Shown here in pieces: positions 7,821-50,783 of a stretch of DNA of 64,000 nt (positions are counted from its first letter, which is position 1; every line of letters begins with the position of its first letter). The stretch is from contig JAUUDM010000025.1 of NCBI GenBank assembly GCA_030826765.1, forward strand, positions 5,365 to 69,364, read 5' to 3'. Under the pieces are notes generated by a model. The model made no database searches. It saw only the letters and a list, made by a program, of their open reading frames with translations, and was not told the DNA's origin. The DNA is from Nautiliales bacterium (GTDB lineage Bacteria; Campylobacterota; Campylobacteria; Campylobacterales; JAADDX01). Both the position numbers and the translations under genes were made by a program.

Positions 7821-8996
7821 TTAATAAAACATTTCGATAACTACATAACTTAAGAAAAGCATAATATGACTAAGACCCTCAAGATAGTTAGTTTCACCAT
7901 TATCTGTAGTTTTCCAAGCAAGAATAATTGTAATAAGTAATGCTCCAATTTGCAAAGGAGTAAAATCCATCGTAATATCAACACCAAAAGAAAGTGCTAA
8001 TGCCATAATAACAGGCACCGTAATAAGAATAGAAACTGTGCTTGCACCCATTGCAATATTTATAACTCTTTGAATTTGATTATTTCTAGCAGCCTTTATA
8101 GCTGTGAATAGTTCAGGAGCACCTGTAATAAGTGCGATTACAATACCTGCAAATCCGGCACTTAAACCAAAATTTTTCATCACTTCCATACCATCACTTG
8201 CAAAAATTTCAGATAAAACACCTACAAATCCCAAAAATCCGACTAAAAATATTCCATTTACCAAATTACTTCTTTTTTCAAAAAAATAATCATCTTCTAC
8301 TTCTTCGTGCTCTTTTTTAAATCTTAAAATTCTTTCTTTAAAAGTAGATTTAAAGAAATGAATATGTGTTTTTGTCTGAAACTTAAAAATAAATATATAA
8401 AAAACTGCTAACAAAATCGCAATAGCAATACTTGCATGCAAAACTGCCTCGTGAGAATGTTCCATTGAAAGTGTAGAAGGGACTAAAAGCATGGCAGCTG
8501 ATACAAATAAAACTGTTGTATAACTTGAAGAGGTATCTTCATTATGATTTTGTTCTTTATAAAAAAGTCCTCCTACAAACATAGCAATACCTAAAAGTGC
8601 ATTCAAATCCACAATAAAAGTAGAAATAATACCACTTTTTACAGAAGTAACTGCTTCTGGATTATGCACAGCTTCAAGTAACACCATAAATAAAATCAAA
8701 ATCTCAACCACAACAGCACTAAAAGTCAAAATCAAACTACCAAAAGGCTCACCAAACCTGTGTGCTAAAATTTCAGCTATTTCACTGATTGTAACCGAAA
8801 TACTAGCAATAGCGATAGTAGCAGCAATTGTAGTAATTAAAACAGAGTAATGTATATGATGTAAATAGAGTGCAGTAATGCCAAAAATTATACCAAAAAG
8901 TATATCCCAATAATCACGAAAAAAGTCAACATTTTTTTCAACCATTTCTGCAATTTCTTCTTTTTTCTCTTCAAACCTACTGACCTGCGAGTCCAT
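7821..8996 (-). CDS. CaCA-family cation/proton antiporter (ChaA-like)
   Basis: 391-aa polytopic protein with two alpha-repeat-like blocks (GEPFGSLILTFSAVVVE and GAPELFTAIKAARNN). Confidence 0.7.
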   Translation of the reverse strand: MDSQVSRFEEKKEEIAEMVEKNVDFFRDYWDILFGIIFGITALYLHHIHYSVLITTIAATIAIASISVTISEIAEILAHRFGEPFGSLILTFSAVVVEILILFMVLLEAVHNPEAVTSVKSGIISTFIVDLNALLGIAMFVGGLFYKEQNHNEDTSSSYTTVLFVSAAMLLVPSTLSMEHSHEAVLHASIAIAILLAVFYIFIFKFQTKTHIHFFKSTFKERILRFKKEHEEVEDDYFFEKRSNLVNGIFLVGFLGFVGVLSEIFASDGMEVMKNFGLSAGFAGIVIALITGAPELFTAIKAARNNQIQRVINIAMGASTVSILITVPVIMALALSFGVDITMDFTPLQIGALLITIILAWKTTDNGETNYLEGLSHIMLFLSYVVIEMFY

Positions 8997-9005
8997 TATT
9001 TCTCC

Positions 9006-9899
9006 TTAAAAAAGTTTTTCTTGAATATCTTCTTTTTCCTTTAACTCTACATCGACACCAATTAAAATCGCAAAATTATAATTATCTTTATAAAAAAAGT
9101 CAATATTATTTATATCATAAAATTTAACAATTGCATATTTTACTTTAGCAAATATAAAATTTAAATCTCTTGTTAAAAATTCATCTTTTTCAAGCCCACT
9201 TATAACAACTCTATCACTTTTTCCAAATGGAATTTTTTCATTTTTTATATTTACAAACTGAGGAGTAAATCTGGATATTTTTAAAGATTTTAAATTATAT
9301 TCTAATTCATTTTCTTCTAAAAAACCTAAAGCTAAAGAAAGTTCATCTAAATATAATGCTGGGAAAATAGCATTATATTCAACACCTTTATATCTAAACT
9401 TAGAGATAAAAAGAGTTGAATCAATAAGCTCAATTTTTTCTTTTTTAGTTAGAGGTATAGTATTTATAGAAATATTAGCTAATTCTTCGTTAGACGTAAT
9501 ATAATATTCATATTCATTTAAAAATTTAGCCTTTACTTTATCAATAATAGCTATTTCTGATGATTTGGATATACTTTTTAAAATATCAAGAGTAATTTTA
9601 TTACAAACATATAAAGTTTTGTTTAAAAGTTTATATTTAAGTAATTTAAATAGAGCTTCTTTGATATCATCAACCCTAATCCAAGCAATTTCATTATCTA
9701 TAATTTCATGATATTCAGTAGAAAGAATAGCATAAGCACCTTTAGCAATAGCTTCTTTGATATTGTCTATATTATCAGAAACAAAAAGATATTCTCTTTT
9801 CATTTCTTTTAAAGAATCAGCAAAACCTGCTATTTCAGATATAAATCCAGCATTTACAAGTTCACCATCTATAATATTAAGAATAGTGTCTATTCTCAT
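9006..9899 (-). CDS. hypothetical protein with Mur-ligase (MurF) N-terminal-like region and a degenerate P-loop
   Basis: 297 aa. ILNIIDGELVN...FADSLKEMKREYLFVS...IKEAIAKGAYAILS...AWIRVDDIKEALFKL parallels the MurF N-domain. The position of TGTNGKT reads YVCNKIT. It overlaps the metG stop by 4 nt. Confidence 0.6.
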   Translation of the reverse strand: MRIDTILNIIDGELVNAGFISEIAGFADSLKEMKREYLFVSDNIDNIKEAIAKGAYAILSTEYHEIIDNEIAWIRVDDIKEALFKLLKYKLLNKTLYVCNKITLDILKSISKSSEIAIIDKVKAKFLNEYEYYITSNEELANISINTIPLTKKEKIELIDSTLFISKFRYKGVEYNAIFPALYLDELSLALGFLEENELEYNLKSLKISRFTPQFVNIKNEKIPFGKSDRVVISGLEKDEFLTRDLNFIFAKVKYAIVKFYDINNIDFFYKDNYNFAILIGVDVELKEKEDIQEKLF

Positions 9900-11824
9900 T
9901 TAATAGGTGTTCCTTCTTTTTTAGGAGCTTCTGGTCTAAGTAAATGTAATCCATTTTCATCTTTTGCAGCAAGAAGCATTCCTTCACTCATCATTCCCAT
10001 AAGTTTAGCTGGTTTTAGATTTGCCACTACTGCAACTTGAGTCCCAACTAAATCTTCAGGAGAATAAAATTCTTTAATTCCTGCTACAATTTGTCTATTT
10101 CTACCTTCACCTAAATCAACTTCTAATCTCAATAATTTTTTAGATTTTTTAACTTCCTCAGCTACTTTTACAGTTCCAATTTTTAAACTAACATTAAAAA
10201 ATTCATCAATTGTAATAATTCCATCTTCATTTTTCACTTCTTTAGTTTCCTCTTTTGGTTCTTTTTTAACTTCTACTTGTTTTAATAGTGGCTTCTCAAT
10301 TTTTGGAAATAATGGCTCTGTTTTTTTAATTATAAATTCATCTAAAATATTTTTATTTTTAATATATTTTTCATAATTTACTGTATCAATTTTATAATTT
10401 AGGCTATCTGCAATTTTATCCATAGTCTTAGGCATAACTGGACTTAGCATAAATGAACCTCTATTTAAAATATTAGCAACTAGTCCCAAAAGAGCCATAG
10501 TTTTTTCTGGATTTTCTTTGATTAATTCCCAAGGTTTTTCATCTTGAATAGTTTTATTTGCAAGTGAGAATACTTTCCATAACTCTTCTAAATATTTATG
10601 AATTTGCATTTCATATAATAATGGTTCAAGTGAATCAAGAATAGTTTCAACTTCTTCAAGTTCTTTTAAATAATATTTTTTCACATCTTTACTATCTATT
10701 TTACCATCAAAATATTTATAACTCATTCCAATAATTCTATTTAAAAGGTTACCAAGTTCATTTGCTAAATCATTATTAATTCTATCAATTAAAGCTTTTT
10801 CACTAAAATCTCCATCAGCACCAAAAGGAACTTCTCTAAGCATAAAATATCTGAAATTTTCTAATCCATAAGCATCTGCAACTTCTTTTGGATTAATTAC
10901 ATTTCCTTTACTTTTACTCATTTTTTCACCATCTCTTGTCCACCATCCATGAGCTGCTATATTTTTAGGTAATTCTAATCCTAAACTCATCAAAAATGCT
11001 GGCCAATAAATTGCGTGAAATTTTAAAATATCTTTTCCAACTATGTGTAAATCAGCTGGCCAATATTTTTCCATTGAAGTTTCATCATCACTTCCATAAC
11101 CAAGAGCTGTAATATAGTTTAAAAGTGCATCAAGCCAAACATAAACTACATGTTTAGGGTCATTTATACTTTCAGGAAGTTTCACTCCCCATTCAAATGA
11201 AGTTCTTGTAATTGATAAATCTCTTAATCCATCTTCAACAAATCTAATAACTTCATTCGCTTTTGCTTTTGGAATTATTGGTGTTTTTTCTTTATACCAA
11301 TTCAAAATATCTTTTTCATATTTTGAAAGTTTAAAAAAGTAACTTTCTTCTTTTAATTTTCTTGTAGGTTTTCCACAATCAGGGCAAAATTCTTTATCAA
11401 TTAATTGTGTTTCAGTAAAAAATGTTTCACAACTTACACAATAATTTCCTTCATATTCACCCTTATAAATATCACCTTTTTCAAACATAATTTCAAATGC
11501 TTTTTGAACACCTTTTTTATGTTCTTCATCAGTAGTTCTTATAAATTTATCATAACTAATTTCAAATTCATCCCATAAACTTTTAAATTTTCCACTAACC
11601 TCATCAGCATACTCTTTTGGAGTTTTACCTCTTGCTTTTGCAGCTTCTTCAATTTTTTGTCCGTGTTCATCTGTTCCAGTTAAAAAGAAAGTATCCATTC
11701 CTTTAAGTCTTGCATATCTTGCAACACTATCAGCAATAATTGTTGTATAAGCATGCCCAATGTGTGCTACATCATTTACATAATAAATTGGAGTTGTTAA
11801 ATAAAATTTTTTACAATCACTCAT
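9896..11824 (-). CDS. metG: methionine--tRNA ligase
   Basis: 642 aa with HIGHAYTT and KMSKSKGN class I motifs, a Cys knuckle (CVSCETFF...CPDCGKP) and a C-terminal tRNA-binding domain. Confidence 0.97.
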
Positions 11825-12675
11825 TTTTCTACCTTTGCATAAGTTTTTAATACTCTTTTGATTTCATAATCACTTCCAAAAAAACATGGAGTTGTATCGT
11901 GAATATGATCTATTCCTAATTCCAATAAATCATCTTTTCCATCAATTGCTAAACCTCCAGCTCTGTTATAAACATAAGCAAAAGGAAATACTTCAAAAAG
12001 TTTTCTAAGTTTTCCTTTTGGTTTATCATTTGCACCTGGATAAGCAAAAAGTCCACCACCTTTTAATAAAATTTGATGTAAGTCTGGCACCATCCCACCA
12101 CTATATCTAAGTCTATATCCATCAGCAAAAAATTTATCTATCATCTCTTTATGATATGAATACCACTCTTTTTGAGTTCCACCAGGTCCTACAATTTTAC
12201 CTTTTTCCCCAAGACTAAGCTCTTTTTGAAAAATAAATTCATTTTTTTCTTCATCTAATCTATATAGTTCTACTACATCTCTAGCAATTACAAGCTCAAC
12301 TCTTGGTCCATAAACCACATAAGCAGCAGCTACAATAGTAGGACCACTATATTCATCTTTATATATTCCAAAAATACTTCCAACACTTAAATTAACATCA
12401 ATTAAACTACTTCCATCAAGTGGGTCATAAGCTATTAAATAATCCCCATTTTCATGCATAGGAGTTACATCTTCTTTTTCTTCACTAACTATTTCTTTTA
12501 TAGCAGATACTTTTTTAAATTCATTTTCAATAATTTCATCGCTAATAATATCAAGTTTTACTTGCACATCCCCACTACTATTTTCACTTTCAGCTTTTGA
12601 AGTATCTTCTGTTTTTATAGCTTTATTTATTTTTATAGCAGCACTTTTTATTGCATTCATTATATCAGTCATCAT
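11821..12675 (-). CDS. fbp: fructose-1,6-bisphosphatase, class 1 (short epsilonproteobacterial form)
   Basis: 284 aa with EEKED, DPLDGSS and RYSGGMVPD motifs. Confidence 0.88.
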
Positions 12676-13157
12676 ATCTCCTTTGCATTATTTAAAACCC
12701 AACTAATTACTTCATCTATATTATTTAAATCTAAAATTTCTATCTCTTTTGAAATGAGACTTTTATCAATTGTATCATCAATAGCAACTGCATTTATATA
12801 AGGAAAATAACTCTCATCTACTTCATTTCTAAAAACTGCAAGTCTTGGAAGTGGTAAATATTTAAGCCCCTCAACTAAAAGATAATCAAAATCATTTATC
12901 ATATCAACTATTTCATCTAAACTTTTTTGTTTATGTGAAAAATATGTCGTTCTTTTAGGTGAAGTTACCACAACTTCAGCACCTGTATTATAAAATTTAT
13001 AACTATCTTTACCCTCTTTATCAAATTTTGCTTTATCTGACGGGTCATTTTTAATAATAGCTATTTTATATGTAGAAATTAATTTTTTTGAAATTTTTTC
13101 AATAAGTGTAGTTTTTCCTGAATTACTTGGCCCTGTAAATGCAACTGCTTTTCTCAC
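12672..13157 (-). CDS. mobB: molybdopterin-guanine dinucleotide biosynthesis adapter protein
   Basis: 161 aa with Walker [17 protein letters not shown] and MobB-like length. Confidence 0.85.
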
Positions 13158-13207
13158 ATTTTTACCTTTTTTTTTATATTATAGCACAAATACAATAAGA
13201 AAAAATC

Positions 13208-16013
<2,806 letters not shown>

Positions 16014-44553: not shown

Positions 44554-45295
44554 TACTATCCCCTTTTAAAAATGCTTGAACTATCTTATTTTCACTTTTT
44601 TGAAACTCTTTTGGTGGTGCAAATTCAATAATTTCACCATTATAAAGCATACCTACATAATCGGCTATTTTAAAACTCTCTTTTAAATCGTGGCTAATTA
44701 CAATTGATGTAACTCCAAGCTTTTCTTGAAGCATCATCGTCATTTGGGAAATTAAATCACTAATTATCGGGTCTAACCCACTTGTTGGCTCATCATATAA
44801 AATTATTTTAGGCTCAAGAATAATGGCTCTTGCAGTAGCTGCTCTTTTTCTCATACCACCACTAAGCTCAAAAGGATAAAGTTTTGCTACCCTCTCACTA
44901 TCAAATCCTACCATATCAAGTTTTTCAAAAACTTTCTCTCTAATCTCATCTTCGCTAAATTTTGTATGCTCTCTAAGTGGAAACGCAACATTATCATAAA
45001 CATTCATACTATCAAACATTGCTCCCTCTTGAAATAGAAATCCAATCTTTTTACGTGTTTCAAAAATCTCTTTTTCGTTCGCTTTTGCAACATCAATTCC
45101 ATCTACAATTATTTCTCCACTATCTGGTTTCAAAAGTGAAACAATATGTTTAATAATAGTTGATTTACCCTGCCCTGAAAGTCCTAAAACGACTACAGTA
45201 CTCCCTTTTGGAATAGTTAAGTTTACATCTTTCAAAACTACTTTTGTTCCAAAGCTTTTTCTAAGATGATTTATTTCTATAATATTTTCATTCAT
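44537..45295 (-). CDS. ABC transporter ATP-binding protein (MlaF-like), no adjacent permease gene
   Basis: 252 aa with Walker A GLSGQGKST, signature LSGGMRKRAATARA and Walker B ILYDEPTSGLD. Confidence 0.88.
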   Translation of the reverse strand: MNENIIEINHLRKSFGTKVVLKDVNLTIPKGSTVVVLGLSGQGKSTIIKHIVSLLKPDSGEIIVDGIDVAKANEKEIFETRKKIGFLFQEGAMFDSMNVYDNVAFPLREHTKFSEDEIREKVFEKLDMVGFDSERVAKLYPFELSGGMRKRAATARAIILEPKIILYDEPTSGLDPIISDLISQMTMMLQEKLGVTSIVISHDLKESFKIADYVGMLYNGEIIEFAPPKEFQKSENKIVQAFLKGDSSAFDI

Positions 45296-45355
45296 TCTTT
45301 CTCCTCATAATGAAGTTATATACCTTCATTTCTCATTATAAAGCCTTTTAATATA
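45294..45355. repeat. direct repeat copy 1: decayed duplicate of the mutS7 3' end
   Basis: attctttctcctcataatgaagttatataccttcatttctcattataaagccttttaatata matches 48026-48086 (first 24 nt identical, then 5 substitutions and 1 indel). In the mutS7 frame it reads GFIMRNEGI-stop-LHYEEKE-stop. Confidence 0.85.
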
Positions 45356-45387: not shown

Positions 45388-46119
45388 TTAACTCTCAAAT
45401 CCTGTTGCTATAATTGTTAATTTTATTTCATCATCTGCAAGTAAATCATCATCAGTTTCGCCTTGGATAATAGTTACATCTTCTTTATCAATAAATTCTC
45501 CTAAAACTGATTCAAGCGCATTATCAAAATCAATCATTGGATAATTTTCATTCGTAGTTACACTGATTAATAATCCTTTTGCATTCATAATATCAATATC
45601 ATCAAGTGGTGAAAATTTTATAGCTTCATTTAATACTTCATAAGCAGAATTTTTACCTAATTTATGAGCTTTACTTGCAAATGCTATTTCTCCATTACTC
45701 ATTAGATGTTTAAAATCATTAAAATCAACCTTTAAATTATTTTCCCCAATAAGCATATTTATAATTTCATTTACAACTTCAATAGCAAAATTCTTTGAGT
45801 TTGAAATTGTAATTACTGTATCACAATATTTTTTTAAAAAATTTAATTCATTATTAACAACACCTATTGTTAAAACGTCTATATCTTTTGAAATCTGAGT
45901 AATTAAATTTATAATTTCTTTTTCTATTTTGTTATCAATAATAATAAAAATTAAATCAGCTTCTATAAGAAATTTTTTAATTTTTAAAGATTCTATATCT
46001 TTATTTATGGTTATAATTTCTACATTCTCTTTTTCTATAATAGAATCAAAAATATTATTAACAATATTGCCTACACTAACTATTTTTATTTTTAAATCTT
46101 TTTGAAAAATATTATTCAT
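45388..46119 (-). CDS. truncated FtsZ/tubulin-family homologue lacking all GTP-binding motifs (pseudo-GTPase)
   Basis: 243 aa, collinear with FtsZ. [14 protein letters not shown] aligns to [50 protein letters not shown] aligns to [50 protein letters not shown] aligns to [31 protein letters not shown] aligns to [31 protein letters not shown] aligns to ELRVTVVATG. Confidence 0.7.
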   Translation of the reverse strand: [243 protein letters not shown]

Positions 46120-46130
46120 TTTAAAATTAC

Positions 46131-46442
46131 TTATATTTTATAATGTTCATCGTCTGCAAATTCATACTTCTTTATTTTAAAAAAATCTATAATCATTTTT
46201 TTATATTCTTCATTCGCAATGATTTTTTTAGCTGCATATATAATAAACTTTTTATTATATGTATTATAAACAATCCTACCTCTTGGAAACTTATCATATC
46301 TATCAATATCAAATCCCATTTTCTCCCATTCAAAAAAATGAGAAAAATCACTATCTTTAAATCCTTTAATTTCCTCAACTTTTGATAATTTAATTCTTTT
46401 AGCTAATAAAAATTCGTCAATAATCCAAAAAATTCCTATCAT
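46131..46442 (-). CDS. small hypothetical protein (cassette gene 3)
   Basis: 103 aa with SHFFEWEKMG, FPRGRIVYN and a C-terminal ADDEHY. It has an ATGA overlap with the upstream gene. I recognise no family. Confidence 0.65.
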   Translation of the reverse strand: MIGIFWIIDEFLLAKRIKLSKVEEIKGFKDSDFSHFFEWEKMGFDIDRYDKFPRGRIVYNTYNKKFIIYAAKKIIANEEYKKMIIDFFKIKKYEFADDEHYKI

Positions 46443-47140
46443 TCTTTTTCTTTTAAACTAAAATAATTATTAACTTGATTTATTATCTCTTTTTGTTGTT
46501 TTTCCACTAATTCTAAAGGTATTGTTTTTTCATACTCCCTTATCATAGCCCCTGCTCCCATCGCTTGAGCACTACTTGAAAAAACTTCAATAAAATCTGT
46601 TTTATTTTGAATATTTTCTAAAACAAACAACTCTCCATTTATAAAAATAGTAAATTTTTTATTATCAATTTCTTGAATTTTCCCAAAACTAAGAGGATTA
46701 TTGTAACATTTATTAGTTCCTATTAAATATCCTTTTATTTTTGTTTCTTGATTTAAAGCACCTTGTGGCAAAAACAATACACTATCTTGTTTATATTTAA
46801 CTCCTAATTCAATCAAATCTTCTTTTAATTTAGCTTTTTTATCTTTATCTACTACAAATATTACTGCTAAATTTTTTTCATTTAATTTAACAGAAGCTGA
46901 TAAAAGATAATATTTTTTTCTTGAAAGTTCAATCAATAATGCTATTGCTCTTTTGCTTTCTTTAACTTCTTTTTCAGTTAAAATACTTGGCTCTTCTTTA
47001 ATAATTCCCCCAAGTTCATCTGTTTGACAAGGAAAATGATCATCTCTAAAACCACAATTATTATATTTTCTATAAGAAGTTATTACTCCACAATCAAATT
47101 TATTATTCCATTCTTCTAAAGTCATTTTCTTTTGTTGCAT
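46439..47140 (-). CDS. hypothetical protein, N-terminal half DUF3293-like (cassette gene 2)
   Basis: 233 aa. GVITSYR...SKRAIALLIELSRKKYYLL...LAVIFVV...LIELGVKYKQDSVLFL is reminiscent of the DUF3293 pattern (ITAxNP...N..R..L...E.SF.V...Q.A). It has a TAATG overlap with the upstream gene. Confidence 0.65.
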   Translation of the reverse strand: MQQKKMTLEEWNNKFDCGVITSYRKYNNCGFRDDHFPCQTDELGGIIKEEPSILTEKEVKESKRAIALLIELSRKKYYLLSASVKLNEKNLAVIFVVDKDKKAKLKEDLIELGVKYKQDSVLFLPQGALNQETKIKGYLIGTNKCYNNPLSFGKIQEIDNKKFTIFINGELFVLENIQNKTDFIEVFSSSAQAMGAGAMIREYEKTIPLELVEKQQKEIINQVNNYFSLKEKE

Positions 47141-47913
47141 TAAGATTCCTTTATCAATTCAAATTCACCTGCATGATTATTACAAAATTTTTCAATATCT
47201 CCTTTTAAATTTTCTTTACTTAAAATTAAATAAACTCTATCAGATTTAAATTTAATGGTATAAAAAAAATTATAATTATTTTTTATAAGATTTTTATCTT
47301 TTAACTCTCGTTCTTTTTTATCTATAAATATTTTATGTTTATTTTTATCTCTTATAAGATGTTGATAAATCACGACTATTTTATGATTTTCTAAAAGTTT
47401 ATCTATTTCATCAAAAAAAATATATTTACCATTTTTTATTTTTTGTTTTGCATGTGTTTTTTCTGAATAAACTTTAATTTGAGTTCCATTATCTGGGTCA
47501 GCAAATACAACATCACAATCTTTGACTTGTTCTAAAGCTTTTTTAAACCACTCTTTTCTATATTCTTCTCTTTTTTTATAATTTGAAAAAAAAGAATTAC
47601 AATCTTTATCTATACATTCATTAAAAAAAGTTATTTTTAATTTATTTTCTAATTCATTTTCTAATTTTTGAATATTTCTTTTATCTTCTTCAATTTTAGA
47701 AAATTTTTTCATTATATTTACTATTTCTTTATCATTTAAATCATAATTTTCATAATTTCTAAATTTACCATCACCATTGCCTTCATTTGGATATAAATAC
47801 CAAATAATTCCAATTTTTTTATCTTTAAATAAATTTCTAATTAAAACAAATTTACTATAATCTCCAATATCTCCAACATATCTATTTTGCATTTTATTTC
47901 CTTTTAGTTTCAT
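47140..47913 (-). CDS. RlmJ/TcmP-like Rossmann-type protein with DPDN instead of DPPY (cassette gene 1)
   Basis: 257 aa. Four collinear blocks match my memory of RlmJ: VGDIGDYSKF vs AGNHADVLKH; YLYPNEGNGDGKF vs YLDTHAGAGRY; VVFADPDNG vs LILIDPPYE; VVIYQH vs YALWYP. An alternative start is the ATG at 47892, which has the better SD aaaggaaat. Confidence 0.6.
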   Translation of the reverse strand: MKLKGNKMQNRYVGDIGDYSKFVLIRNLFKDKKIGIIWYLYPNEGNGDGKFRNYENYDLNDKEIVNIMKKFSKIEEDKRNIQKLENELENKLKITFFNECIDKDCNSFFSNYKKREEYRKEWFKKALEQVKDCDVVFADPDNGTQIKVYSEKTHAKQKIKNGKYIFFDEIDKLLENHKIVVIYQHLIRDKNKHKIFIDKKERELKDKNLIKNNYNFFYTIKFKSDRVYLILSKENLKGDIEKFCNNHAGEFELIKES

Positions 47914-48023
47914 ATGTCCTTATAACTATATAGTATGTGTAGTGCTAATTTTTTAACCCCTTTTTGAATAAAGTTAAGAAATTGTTTTATGAAAGTTACA
48001 AAAAGTAACAAGTTTTTAAAAAA

Positions 48024-50783
48024 TTATTCTTTCTCCTCATAATGAAGTTGTATACCTTCGCTTGTCATCATAAAGCCTTTTATATCCAATTTTCCTTCGT
48101 GTGCTAACTTGTGATGATATTTACAAAGTGGTATTAAATTATATTTATGATGTTTTTGAAATTCATTTTCAATAGTAGATTTTAGCTTTATATGATGAAC
48201 CTCATCAGCAGGTCTCCCACAGATTGCACAAGTAGTAACTAAAACATCTTTATTGTAAATTGACTTTTTATTTTTGGTTAAAAGTTCTAATTCATTATAT
48301 TCGTTTGTTACTTTTTTTCTAATCTCATTTGCTATTTTTAAAAACTCTTCATCCATATAAAGACTTTTTGCAAACTCAAGCCCATAAACACTACTTCCAC
48401 TTCCATCTTGTAATATTCTATTATAGATTAATTTTTGAGATTTTTCATCGAAATATACTTCTAAATGTTTAGCTACTACATTTTTTAAAGCTTTTATTTC
48501 ATCTAAATTCATTAATTGATGTAAGTGTGTAGCAAAAATAAAATTTGCTCTAATTTTAGATAACTTTATAACAGCACTTGCAACTATACTCAAAGCTGAT
48601 AAAGTTTCAGTTCCGTGAGAAATTTCATCACCTAAAACTAATGAATTTGAATTTGCTCTTTTGAATATATTTTTAAGTTCCATCATCTCTACTGCAAATG
48701 TAGATAAGCCTTTACTTAGATTATCTTTTGAAATAATTCTTGTAAAAATAGAATCAAATAAAGAAAATTCCATTTTAGTAGCCGGTACAAAAAATCCACT
48801 TTGAGCTAAAACTACACAAATTCCTATACTTTTCATAAGCGAACTTTTTCCACTTGAATTAATTCCATACAAAAGCATTCCATCATATTTATTGAAATCT
48901 ACATCATTTGGAACATATATTCCATTTTCTTGATTAATTTCAATTAAAGGATGACGGGCTTCTTTTATTTTTAATTTACAATTTTTAATTATTGGCTTTG
49001 AATAATCATACTTTTTAGCAATTTTTGCACTACTTAAAGCTATGTCAACTTCAGATATTTTTGTAGCTAATTCATTTAAAAAACTATATTTTTTTTCAAA
49101 TTCAGATAACTTTTCTAAAAATAGTTCCGAAGTTAAATTAATCAATTTTTGTCTAATAATTACTATTTCATTACTTATTTCATCAATAATTGAACCTGTT
49201 ATTTTCACACTATTTGTAAAAGTTTTAATATTAAAATCTTTAAAAAAATAATTATTACCATCAATTTCTATGAAAGTATCATTAAATTTATCTTTTATTA
49301 AATTAAATCTTGTTTTAGTTAAACTTAAATAATGTCCTTCTTTATCAAGTTCATTTATATTTAACTTCACATTTCCTTCAAAAAGAGATTCTATTTTTTT
49401 AGCAATAAGTTCTAAATTTTTATTTAACTTCTCTATTTTATTTGTATAATCATCTAAAGTTTTAGAATATCCATTTTTAAAAATTGACTCTTTTATATCA
49501 TTAAACATAACTTTAGCTGACTTTTCTAAATCAAATGTTTGCTTAATATCAAACAAAAACTCTTCTATTTTTGAAGTATCTTTATTTAAAAACATATATA
49601 TTTTTTTACTATTTTCTAAAGAACTATATAAATAATTTATTTCAAAGGGATGAAGCTTAGACAATTTTATTTTTCTATCTAATCTTTCAATATCATAAAT
49701 CTCATTGATTAAATTTTCAAATTTATCACCCTCTTTTAACATAAACTCAACTGCTTTATATCTTTTTTTGAGCTCTTTTTCATCTTTTATTGGATTAAAA
49801 AATCTCTGTTTTATAAGCCTTTTCCCCATTGGTGTAGAAGTTTTATCAATAAGTTTTAATACATCATCCAAATCAAGCTGTACTATTGGATTATTTCCAA
49901 AATATAAATATTTATCATTTTCTATAACTTTTGGTAAATCTATTTTTTGAATAATTTTATAATTATGAGCTATTATAAATTCAAGTAAAATAGCAAAACT
50001 TTCACTCGCTAGTGGAAGTGATTCTAAATTCAAAGATTCAATTGGACTTAAAAGTGATTTTATATTATAAACTTTTTTAAGAAGTTCATTTTGGTAAGTT
50101 ATTTTCACTCTTTTAGATGAATAAATTAAATTTATATTTTTTAGCTCTAAATAATTAATTATTTCATCACACTCAACACTCTTATCCAAAGTCAAAATAA
50201 ATTCTTTACTTTTATAAGTTTGGATAAGTTTAAAAAGCTCATCTAAAGCAAATGTTTTATCTTCATTTGTAGAATATGCTTCAAAAATATTGGTTTTTCC
50301 AGTAGTTATATCTACATTTGCATACCCTATGTGATAAATATCTTTTATTTTTTCAATAATTATACTTGTTACATAATTTTCTTCTTTTTTTACATAATCA
50401 AAATTGACTCCTGGAGAAATTATATCGCTTATATATCTTGTGACTTTTGGTGGAGTTCCCTTTTGTTTGATTAAAATGATTGTATACTTTTCTTCATCTA
50501 TAAGTTTTTGTATATATCTATCAAGTGCATGATTTGGAAATCCAGCTAAAAGTGGATTTTTATCATTAACTTCTATAATTGATTTATTTTTTCTTGTAAG
50601 CTGAATATTTAAAAGCTCTGCAACTTCTTTGGCTTTGCCAATCCCATTTGATTCATATACTTCAAAGAATGTCCCTATTTCCATCAAAACTAAAGGATTT
50701 GGATATTTACTCTCAAAATATTTTTGCAAATCAAAATAAATTTGAGTTAAAAGTTTATTTGAATTTAATATCTTATTTATCAC
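48024..50783 (-). CDS. MutS-family ATPase with C-terminal HNH endonuclease (MutS7 type)
   Basis: 919 aa. N-terminal mismatch-domain motif GTFFEVYE (Phe-x-Glu). Walker A GINSSGKSSLMKS, Walker B LVLGDEISHGTE, and FATHLHQL. C-terminal HNH block CAICGRPADEVHHIK...NLIPLCKYHHKLAHEG. Confidence 0.88.
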   Translation of the reverse strand: MINKILNSNKLLTQIYFDLQKYFESKYPNPLVLMEIGTFFEVYESNGIGKAKEVAELLNIQLTRKNKSIIEVNDKNPLLAGFPNHALDRYIQKLIDEEKYTIILIKQKGTPPKVTRYISDIISPGVNFDYVKKEENYVTSIIIEKIKDIYHIGYANVDITTGKTNIFEAYSTNEDKTFALDELFKLIQTYKSKEFILTLDKSVECDEIINYLELKNINLIYSSKRVKITYQNELLKKVYNIKSLLSPIESLNLESLPLASESFAILLEFIIAHNYKIIQKIDLPKVIENDKYLYFGNNPIVQLDLDDVLKLIDKTSTPMGKRLIKQRFFNPIKDEKELKKRYKAVEFMLKEGDKFENLINEIYDIERLDRKIKLSKLHPFEINYLYSSLENSKKIYMFLNKDTSKIEEFLFDIKQTFDLEKSAKVMFNDIKESIFKNGYSKTLDDYTNKIEKLNKNLELIAKKIESLFEGNVKLNINELDKEGHYLSLTKTRFNLIKDKFNDTFIEIDGNNYFFKDFNIKTFTNSVKITGSIIDEISNEIVIIRQKLINLTSELFLEKLSEFEKKYSFLNELATKISEVDIALSSAKIAKKYDYSKPIIKNCKLKIKEARHPLIEINQENGIYVPNDVDFNKYDGMLLYGINSSGKSSLMKSIGICVVLAQSGFFVPATKMEFSLFDSIFTRIISKDNLSKGLSTFAVEMMELKNIFKRANSNSLVLGDEISHGTETLSALSIVASAVIKLSKIRANFIFATHLHQLMNLDEIKALKNVVAKHLEVYFDEKSQKLIYNRILQDGSGSSVYGLEFAKSLYMDEEFLKIANEIRKKVTNEYNELELLTKNKKSIYNKDVLVTTCAICGRPADEVHHIKLKSTIENEFQKHHKYNLIPLCKYHHKLAHEGKLDIKGFMMTSEGIQLHYEEKE
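48026..48086. repeat. direct repeat copy 2: functional 3' end of mutS7
   Basis: attctttctcctcataatgaagttgtataccttcgcttgtcatcataaagccttttatatc. It encodes ...GFMMTSEGIQLHYEEKE-TAA and lies 2732 bp from copy 1. Confidence 0.85.

Follow-up and report, generated by a model that had tools for sequence, protein, structure and literature searches.

A 64,000-nucleotide stretch of a Nautiliales bacterium genome (assembly GCA_030826765.1, contig JAUUDM010000025.1, positions 5,365 to 69,364 of the forward strand; hereafter the window) carries on its minus strand a gene, here called p1, that is the first of a four-gene cassette and belongs to a large protein family without a name. The reading that we favour, with about even confidence, is that the p1 family uses a methyltransferase-type scaffold resembling that of RlmJ, the N6-adenine methyltransferase for m6A2030 in helix 72 of 23S rRNA (PDB 4BLU/4BLV/4BLW), in which the half-site for a base or nucleotide is kept and the half-site for S-adenosylmethionine (SAM) is replaced by a charged, probably metal-binding site, and that its members act on nucleotides or nucleic acids in mobile, conflict-related gene sets. 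The fold would derive from the class I methyltransferase fold in its RlmJ-type variant, or be closely convergent with it. Of the active site it would keep the half for a flipped-out base or nucleotide (the Asp-x-x-Lys of helix 1, the Asp-Pro of motif IV and the aromatic residue of motif VI) and would have lost the SAM-holding half (motifs I, II and III), with conserved charged residues gained instead. Such a protein would bind a nucleotide or an extruded nucleic-acid base and carry out non-methyl chemistry, probably metal-assisted, on a phosphate or glycosidic bond, and the cassette as a whole would most likely serve in conflict with phages or plasmids (defence or counter-defence) rather than in housekeeping. 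The existence and conservation of the family, its predicted fold class, the kept and lost motifs, the insertion and the neighbouring genes are observed, while we infer which residues correspond to those of RlmJ, what the protein binds, which reaction it performs and what it does for the cell.

In the open reading frame (ORF) list p1 is an intact frame of 257 codons at 47140..47913 (minus strand), and residue numbers below follow this full 257-aa frame. The functional start is most likely M8 at window position 47892, because the homologues all begin with MQxRY (MQ(N/D)RY in all 29 close and the top 150 representative homologues in the alignments) and an AAGGA ribosome-binding site lies 7 nt 5' of the M8 ATG; the coding sequence would then span 47140..47892 and encode 250 aa. 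The identical 250-aa product is called in an independent assembly, where the neighbouring genes are identical too. The alternative start, the upstream ATG at 47913, yields the 257-aa frame listed in the original prediction. That prediction had aligned four collinear strings of p1 with four strings of RlmJ. The p1 strings are present and their coordinates were checked, and the RlmJ strings are correct for the Escherichia coli protein from MG1655 (AGNHADVLKH at 10-19, YLDTHAGAGRY at 38-48, LILIDPPYE at 160-168 and YALWYP at 192-197). Block 1, VGDIGDYSKF (47848-47877, minus strand), belongs to the N-terminal tail and helix 1 (MQNRYVGDIGDYSKF, 47848..47892, minus strand), a run of invariant or near-invariant alignment columns with the family-wide signature M-Q-x-R-Y-x-G-D-x-G-D-x-x-K. 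Block 2, YLYPNEGNGDGKF (47761..47799, minus strand), corresponds to strand 1 and the loop after it according to the secondary structure of the model and the alignments. Block 3, VVFADPDNG (47485..47511, minus strand), is a strand with the D-P-D-N-G loop, placed where methyltransferases have motif IV (RlmJ 160-168), and block 4, VVIYQH (47359..47376, minus strand), is a strand with the invariant Y183 and the near-invariant H185 at the position of RlmJ motif VI.

Support for an RlmJ-like layout comes from the predicted structure and not from sequence statistics, the similarity between the p1 and RlmJ sequences being at chance level. Of the layout claimed in the original prediction, the order of elements agrees with the AlphaFold model and the architecture is plausible there, but the sequence resemblance was not borne out. 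The AlphaFold2 model of p1, built from a 30-sequence alignment, is an alpha/beta fold of high confidence (predicted local distance difference test score (pLDDT) 90.1, predicted template modelling score (pTM) 0.90). When it was compared with the PDB by Foldseek, 28 of the 29 best matches were SAM-dependent methyltransferases, headed by ArmA (E 1.4e-3) and followed by METTL16, M.MpeI, LCMT1, Hen1, PsiM and others, with probabilities up to 0.87 and template modelling (TM) scores of 0.27-0.40. RlmJ (4blu_A, E 2e-2) had the highest query-normalised TM-score among these PDB matches (0.40), and in the viral structure library BFVD the top matches were likewise methyltransferases, with probabilities up to 0.97. 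The best matches in the PDB and among viral structures are almost all class I SAM methyltransferases, as the original prediction would have it, but none is individually significant and no profile match was found, so that by its own refutation criterion the prediction is borderline. The catalytic domains of METTL16 were among the top fold matches (E 1.3e-2 to 1.5e-2, query-normalised TM-score up to 0.35); METTL16/RlmF-type enzymes, M.TaqI and T4Dam, which are N6-adenine methyltransferases with (D/N)PP(Y/F/W), however, have canonical SAM motifs and a PP(Y/F) sequence, and p1 has neither.

In the p1 model the four blocks fall on helix 1, strand 1 with its loop, the motif-IV strand and the motif-VI strand, in the same order as in RlmJ. 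Three features set RlmJ apart among methyltransferases: a strictly conserved cluster among the first 19 positions of the chain (the tail of motif X and helix 1), a helical subdomain inserted directly after strand 1 (47-98) at a position that the authors called novel, and an extra helix and strand at the C-terminus (PMC3814359). The p1 model appears to share all three, as it has the conserved MQxRYxGDxGDxxK tail and helix, a helical insertion at about 45-93 between strand 1 (34-38) and strand 2 (94-97), and a helix (237-246) plus strand (251-256) that follow a hairpin of the beta6-beta7 type (216-222 and 226-232). The sole internal stretch of low confidence, 141-160 (pLDDT 57-73), comes after DPDNG and parallels the 165-170 loop of RlmJ, which is mobile and moves on ligand binding (PMC3814359). 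Between residues 98 and 134, the expected place of motif III, the model has no strand. As a description of architecture the RlmJ-like layout of p1 is plausible, judged on this predicted model; as homology it is not established.

Among 150 diverse family members D15, D18, G49, W122, D141, G143 and Y183 are invariant, and about 25 further columns are conserved in at least 90%, including M8, Q9, Y12, K21, W38, D48 and R79 as well as R119, D139, P140, N142, K163, H185, R188 and R226. The resulting family signature is MQxRYxGDxGDxxK ... W ... DG ... R ... R..W ... F.DPDNG ... K ... Y.H..R ... R. Blocks 1, 3 and 4 fall on these conserved columns (G14/D15/D18/K21, D139-G143 and Y183/H185, respectively). 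For block 2 the family consensus is WYLxPDExHNxDGxH, in which only W38, D48 and G49 are conserved, and the glycine-rich look ("GNG") is specific to the p1 sequence and not a feature of the family. The observation in the original prediction that DPDN stands in place of DPP(Y/F) extends to the whole family, in which DPDNG is conserved: an invariant Asp and a near-invariant Asn take the places that the second Pro and the Tyr have in DPPY, so that the D-P-P-(Y/F) of RlmJ motif IV is set against D139-P140-D141-N142-G143.

Mapped onto RlmJ, D18 and K21 of p1 would fall on D15 and K18, D139-P140 on D164-P165, and Y183 on W195, and the tail with helix 1 would be the counterpart of RlmJ motif X (G11 N12 .. 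D15 .. K18). The spacing G-[D/N]-x-x-D-x-x-K is the same in both (G14 D15..D18..K21 in p1, G11 N12..D15..K18 in RlmJ). In RlmJ K18 is positioned by D15 and touches both the catalytic D164 and the target base, on which W195 stacks, and activity is abolished by the substitutions K18A and D164A; the motif IV Asp and the Lys of the motif X region form the base-contacting pair in METTL16/RlmF-type enzymes, M.TaqI and T4Dam as well (PMC3814359). Y4, H6 and H19 of RlmJ, on the other hand, are without counterparts in p1, as the p1 family starts one residue after the Y4 position and has Q at H6 and F/Y at H19. RlmJ holds SAM through H42 (motif I), E118 (motif II), D143-G144-F145 (motif III), S100 and H19 (PMC3814359), and none of these contacts has a conserved counterpart in the p1 family in the alignments or the model. 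The family shows no conserved glycine-rich motif I, and the residue after strand 2 is variable, with no conserved acidic residue there. The charged set D15, D48, E44, R79, R119, K163, H185, R188 and R226 together with D141/N142 suggests that the site takes a phosphate-bearing ligand and probably a metal instead of SAM, and p1 is probably not a SAM-dependent methylase. It may still resemble RlmJ in part of the way in which it holds its substrate. The original prediction held that p1 may bind nucleotides or nucleic acids and yet not be a canonical N6-adenine methylase, which is in keeping with the lost motifs I-III and with the nucleotide-enzyme neighbours of distant relatives described below.

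The family to which p1 belongs is large, has no name, is horizontally mobile and occurs sporadically across bacteria, archaea, plasmids and viral contigs. The first-round homologues formed 29 clusters at 90% identity, and a profile built from these 29 retrieved 4,636 representative clusters at E<=1e-3, with 1,597 at E<=1e-30. Counted with one genome per species, at least 533 loci are spread over Alphaproteobacteria, Dehalococcoidia, Clostridia, Planctomycetes, candidate phyla and archaea. RlmJ, by contrast, is a conserved ribosome-biogenesis gene. Library scans of p1 against Pfam and NCBIfam (both at E<=1), PADLOC and PHROG gave no match, the 150 diverse members had no relevant match in Pfam, NCBIfam or PHROG, and sequence and profile searches of the PDB with p1 and the family alignments returned noise only (amylase, SpoIID, TetR). 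The literature searched contained no description of the family or of its gene combination. One relative that is 91% identical to p1 (P0001) is named '16S rRNA G966 N2-methylase RsmD' by the JGI pipeline, a name that looks over-assigned because no RsmD or other methyltransferase model matches P0001 or p1 in the model searches. Some members are longer and carry C-terminal extensions (P0059 with 405 aa, P0106 with 357 aa, P0155, P0140, P0113 and P0014), among them a Cys-rich, zinc-ribbon-like tail and, in the Nautiliaceae branch, an extension of roughly 90 aa. In such extensions weak matches below the Pfam cut-offs were found to a GIY-YIG nuclease (one longer member, E 0.0026) and to XRE-type helix-turn-helix (HTH) domains (some members, E 0.002-0.013).

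Distant relatives of p1 adjoin or overlap genes for nucleotide enzymes at 10 of 76 genomic loci, with partners of three kinds: dCTP-deaminase-like (PF22769), PurA-like (a short adenylosuccinate-synthetase-like gene, PF00709, of about 350 aa) and P-loop kinase genes, the kinase in many cases being a fusion with DUF429 and an RNase_H_2/DEDD exonuclease domain. These ten loci (L030 at 8563-14914, L041 at 8031-11419, L056 at 7957-11399, L031, L036, L062, L063, L065, L021 and L047) are from Mesorhizobium, Bradyrhizobium, Rhodopseudomonas, several Rhodobacterales and three Dehalococcoidia. In the Dehalococcoidia the order is PurA-like gene, dCTP-deaminase-like gene, p1 family gene and kinase, all on one strand. 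Genes for HNH_2 endonucleases flank the p1 family gene in three Rhodobacterales, and in a Nautiliaceae metagenome-assembled genome (MAG) a DUF429 gene overlaps it. The recurrent set of partners had no PADLOC match except weak ones to a kinase, DEDDh and PDC-S44. PurA-like operons with unassigned function that lie beside ART-like genes have been described in Mesorhizobium, Rhizobium and Pseudomonas (PMC12522546). The likeness lies in the short PurA-like gene that accompanies p1 relatives in Mesorhizobium, Bradyrhizobium, Rhodobacterales and Dehalococcoidia; the other partners of the p1 relatives differ, being dCTP-deaminase-like and DUF429/kinase genes, and no ART-like gene was identified among them. 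The window cassette itself holds none of the dCTP-deaminase-like, PurA-like or DUF429/kinase genes.

Mobile elements contribute further relatives. They occur on 20 viral contigs, on 4 of which the gene lies between the terminase and portal genes, on two plasmids (from Sulfuricurvum and Lacticaseibacillus) and in an island with toxin-antitoxin genes and a recombinase. In several IMG/VR contigs (L096, L097 and L099-L102) the p1 relative is flanked by the large terminase subunit gene on one side and the gene of an SPP1-type portal protein on the other, as if it were an accessory gene inserted into the packaging module. On the Sulfuricurvum kujiense plasmid pSULKU02 (L193, 7001-8731) a relative with 34% identity to p1 lies about 600 bp from a gene annotated as DUF3293. 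Some relatives of p2, the second gene of the window cassette, match DUF3293 as well, but the plasmid protein is not directly similar to p2 and a DUF3293 gene is absent from all other loci; the co-occurrence may be due to chance.

The cassette lies at the 3' end of a mutS homologue, and its boundaries bear out the placement of p1 as first gene in the original prediction, which saw in it a possible sensor or modifier component. A 57-nt direct repeat (52/57 identical, with sharp edges) is found at 48026-48082 and 45294-45350. The right copy (48026..48082) is the live 3' end of mutS and encodes its last 18 codons (KGFMMTSEGIQLHYEEKE*), and the left copy (45294..45350) is a decayed mutS 3' end (KGFIMRNEGI*LHYEEKE*). 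The mutS gene and the ATP-binding cassette (ABC) ATPase gene were once translationally coupled, with overlapping stop and start, because the final GAATGA of the left copy overlaps the ATG of the ABC gene. On this sequence evidence a 2.7-kb segment of four genes was inserted between mutS and the ABC gene and duplicated the 3' end of mutS, as integrative elements do; the uninterrupted site would have run from mutS through a GAGGAGAAAGAATGA junction straight into the ABC gene. The inserted segment consists of a 110-nt AT-rich leader and four co-directional genes, namely p1, p2, p3 and an FtsZ-like gene. No recombinase or integrase was found among the four in the Pfam and NCBIfam scans, and the window contains no tRNA gene. 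The AT-rich spacer between the mutS stop and p1 (47893..48023, minus strand) presumably carries a putative promoter of the cassette, a scan for promoters and terminators being uninformative in DNA this rich in AT (20% GC). The GC content of p1 is 0.187, against 0.21-0.25 in neighbouring genes, and does not clearly set the cassette apart.

The integration target (48024-50783, minus strand) encodes a MutS homologue of 919 aa with MutS_I, MutS_III and MutS_V domains and a Cys/His-rich, HNH-like C-terminal tail (weak matches to HNH, HNH_2 and DUF968) that falls below the NCBIfam MutS1 cut-offs. It resembles MutS-HNH proteins of the MutS7 type, which occur in Epsilonproteobacteria, giant viruses and octocoral mitochondria. 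Of the smaller cassette genes, p3 (46131..46442, minus strand, 103 aa) starts within the p2 stop as ATGA and is thus translationally coupled to p2; scans of Pfam, NCBIfam, PADLOC, PHROGs and the phage collection gave nothing for it. The last gene within the repeats is the FtsZ-like p4 (45388..46119, minus strand, 243 aa), in which the FtsZ C-terminal domain alone was detected (E 1.8e-10); a tubulin/FtsZ GTPase domain was not matched, and the glycine-rich nucleotide-binding stretch looks degenerate by eye. The only matches of p4 in the phage collection look like bacterial FtsZ, and neither p3 nor p4 had an informative phage or viral match.

The start of p2 (46439..47140, minus strand, 233 aa) overlaps the stop of p1 as TAATG, by which the two genes are translationally coupled. 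Searched by itself, p2 matches PF23780, the S-adenosylmethionine lyase family, below the cut-off (E 0.053); within the p2 family 8 of 9 members match PF23780 (best E 8.3e-11) and 4 match DUF3293. Precomputed tables also assign PF23780 to four relatives (P0302-P0305) that share 39-46% identity with p2 across 84-92% of its length. Judging from these matches p2 belongs, as a divergent member, to the S-adenosylmethionine lyase family (PF23780/DUF3293). Its length exceeds that of the PF23780 domain (133 positions) by about 80-100 residues, and it has an N-terminal region that contains Cys residues. An AlphaFold2 model from 9 sequences was too poor (pLDDT 52.9) to judge the SAM-lyase fold. The closest relatives of p2 outside the Nautiliales, at 46-49% identity, are on a 94-kb phage contig with genes for a capsid, DNA polymerase A and a UvrD-helicase. 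SAM lyases are counter-defence enzymes of phages. The likeness to the phage SAM lyases (T3 SAMase, Svi3-3) and to SAM-AMP lyases concerns p2 and not p1. Relatives of SAM lyases degrade SAM-AMP, the second messenger of type III CRISPR systems (PMC12255297). The p1-p2 pair is kept only in a Nautiliales-like clade, comprising the window, Lebetimonas natsushimae (58% identity) and short contigs. In Lebetimonas its neighbourhood differs from that of the window, p3 is absent beside it and no flanking repeat was found. A 1,297-bp contig in a Methanocaldococcaceae MAG bin (L005) carries a p1 relative with 53% identity followed by the start of a p2 relative, an arrangement that may reflect mis-binning or transfer between vent organisms.

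Several results weigh against an RlmJ-like scaffold acting in conflict. No significant sequence or profile link was found between p1 and RlmJ, TcmP or any methyltransferase model, and no PADLOC or PHROG model matches p1. The original prediction had placed p1 near the RlmJ and TcmP families, and in this it was not borne out by the profile searches: PF04378 (RlmJ) matched neither p1 at E<=1 nor any of the 150 family members at E<=10, and at the same respective thresholds TcmP or RlmJ models of NCBIfam were absent from the matches. A p1 family hidden Markov model scored about 0 bits on 121 RlmJ sequences, and PDB profile searches with the family did not retrieve RlmJ. When the 178-sequence alignment of the family was compared with RlmJ by hhalign, the probability was 0.3% and the register was unrelated to that of the original prediction; this negative is weak because the RlmJ profile is shallow (>83% identical, effective number of sequences (Neff) 1.6), an attempt to widen it having given only relatives at least 90% identical. 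In segment-wise comparisons judged against 100 column-shuffled controls, the full-length family (48/100 shuffles as high) and the N-terminal segment (82/100) were at the null level. For the segment of motifs IV-VI hhalign chose the VVFADP/LILIDP register, and with 3 of 100 shuffles scoring as high this result is marginal. Structurally, the PDB search with the p1 model gave nothing at E<=1e-3, the RlmJ match (TM-score 0.40, root-mean-square deviation 8.6 A) lies under the usual same-fold threshold, and the residue mapping rests on collinear motif order instead of superposed coordinates. The SAM-lyase-family neighbour p2 could equally mean that p1 binds SAM. Finally, about 85% of the loci of the family have no recurrent neighbour, and the conflict role is circumstantial because of this. 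By any test run p1 is a member of neither the RlmJ nor the TcmP family. TcmP (three-Cys-motif partner protein, NCBIfam model TIGR04474) is found in accessory gene clusters, and the three-Cys partner gene is absent beside p1.

The chance-level similarity to RlmJ leaves room for another reading, in which p1 has a generic Rossmann-like scaffold, for instance Toprim-like with Glu and DxD, and works as a metal-dependent nuclease or phosphohydrolase, the likeness to methyltransferases and to RlmJ being convergent or trivial. We regard this as unlikely, if a serious contender. The acidic cluster D15, D18, D48, D139 and D141 together with E44, which follows strand 1, and the 'DPD', which follows a central strand, would resemble Glu/DxD metal sites, and nuclease genes (HNH_2, DUF429, DEDD) lie near relatives, one longer member of the family having the sub-threshold GIY-YIG match. 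Yet no Toprim, PIN or nuclease model or structure is among the matches, the list of which consists almost purely of methyltransferases, and a hairpin of strands 6 and 7 is typical of that fold, as the RlmJ-like insertion and extension also are hallmarks of methyltransferases. Ideas of a Toprim, PIN or HUP domain derived from motif shapes were dropped, no such model or structure being among the matches. The same dominance of methyltransferases in the fold matches speaks for p1 being a true SAM-dependent methyltransferase that modifies DNA or RNA, in which motif IV (DPDNG) is unusual and the cofactor pocket has diverged, with p2 tuning the SAM supply or removing a SAM-derived product. The translational coupling of p2 to p1, the RsmD name of the 91%-identical relative and the viral relatives between terminase and portal genes, an interval that is a frequent position of orphan phage methylases, are in line with this. 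We nevertheless think it rather unlikely, as the 150 members have no Pfam or NCBIfam methyltransferase match save an isolated TRM5 (E 0.018), the glycines of motif I, the acidic residue of motif II and the entire strand of motif III are absent or lack conservation, and Asp, Arg and Lys make up most of the invariant set, which a SAM pocket would not typically show.

In a third kind of explanation, which appears quite improbable to us, p1 would be catalytically inert and serve as a reader or adaptor: a base- or ligand-binding module of methyltransferase descent that regulates partner proteins in response to a modified base or a small molecule derived from SAM. It would account for the variable partners, for the longer members with weak, sub-threshold HTH or GIY-YIG extensions and for the invariant aromatic residue kept at the stacking position, and it could draw on the degradation of SAM-AMP by SAM-lyase relatives (PMC12255297). 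However, many charged residues are conserved over thousands of clusters, which is more typical of catalysis than of binding, and p1 itself has no effector-like domain. Scarcely credible is a housekeeping factor tied to mismatch repair or cell division, as the location between mutS and an ftsZ-like gene on one strand might suggest: the genes are co-directional and tightly packed, but the insertion bounded by the 57-nt repeat split a formerly coupled mutS-ABC junction, the orthologous pair in Lebetimonas has a different neighbourhood, and the family is sporadic over bacteria, archaea, plasmids and viral contigs.

The reading of p1 as an RlmJ-like scaffold turned to non-methyl chemistry in conflict-related gene sets can be taken further, in a form that we consider doubtful but worth stating. 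The DPDNG/GDxGDxxK family might be an unrecognised enzyme class that arose from RlmJ-type N6-adenine methyltransferases, with the base-flipping pocket kept and a metal/phosphate site in place of the SAM site (for example for base excision or the transfer of a nucleotide-derived group), and might form the core of an undescribed, widespread conflict system with dCTP-deaminase-like, PurA/PurZ-like and kinase/DUF429 enzymes, the Nautiliales version being teamed with a phage-derived SAM or SAM-conjugate lyase. Were p1 instead an ordinary divergent methylase, the result would be modest, yet the annotation gap of a large family would be filled, as the thousands of clusters in it are without a model in any library searched here. 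That operons with dCTP-deaminase-like, PurA-like and kinase genes recur around the family suggests a nucleotide-centred system not described so far, with plasmids, phages and small integrated cassettes as its means of spread, and the cassette in the window, compact, cleanly bounded and of four genes, is a directly testable unit. If the mapping onto RlmJ is true, the family would be a case in which a methyltransferase scaffold has been turned to chemistry other than methyl transfer, with nucleotides or nucleic acids as the substrates.

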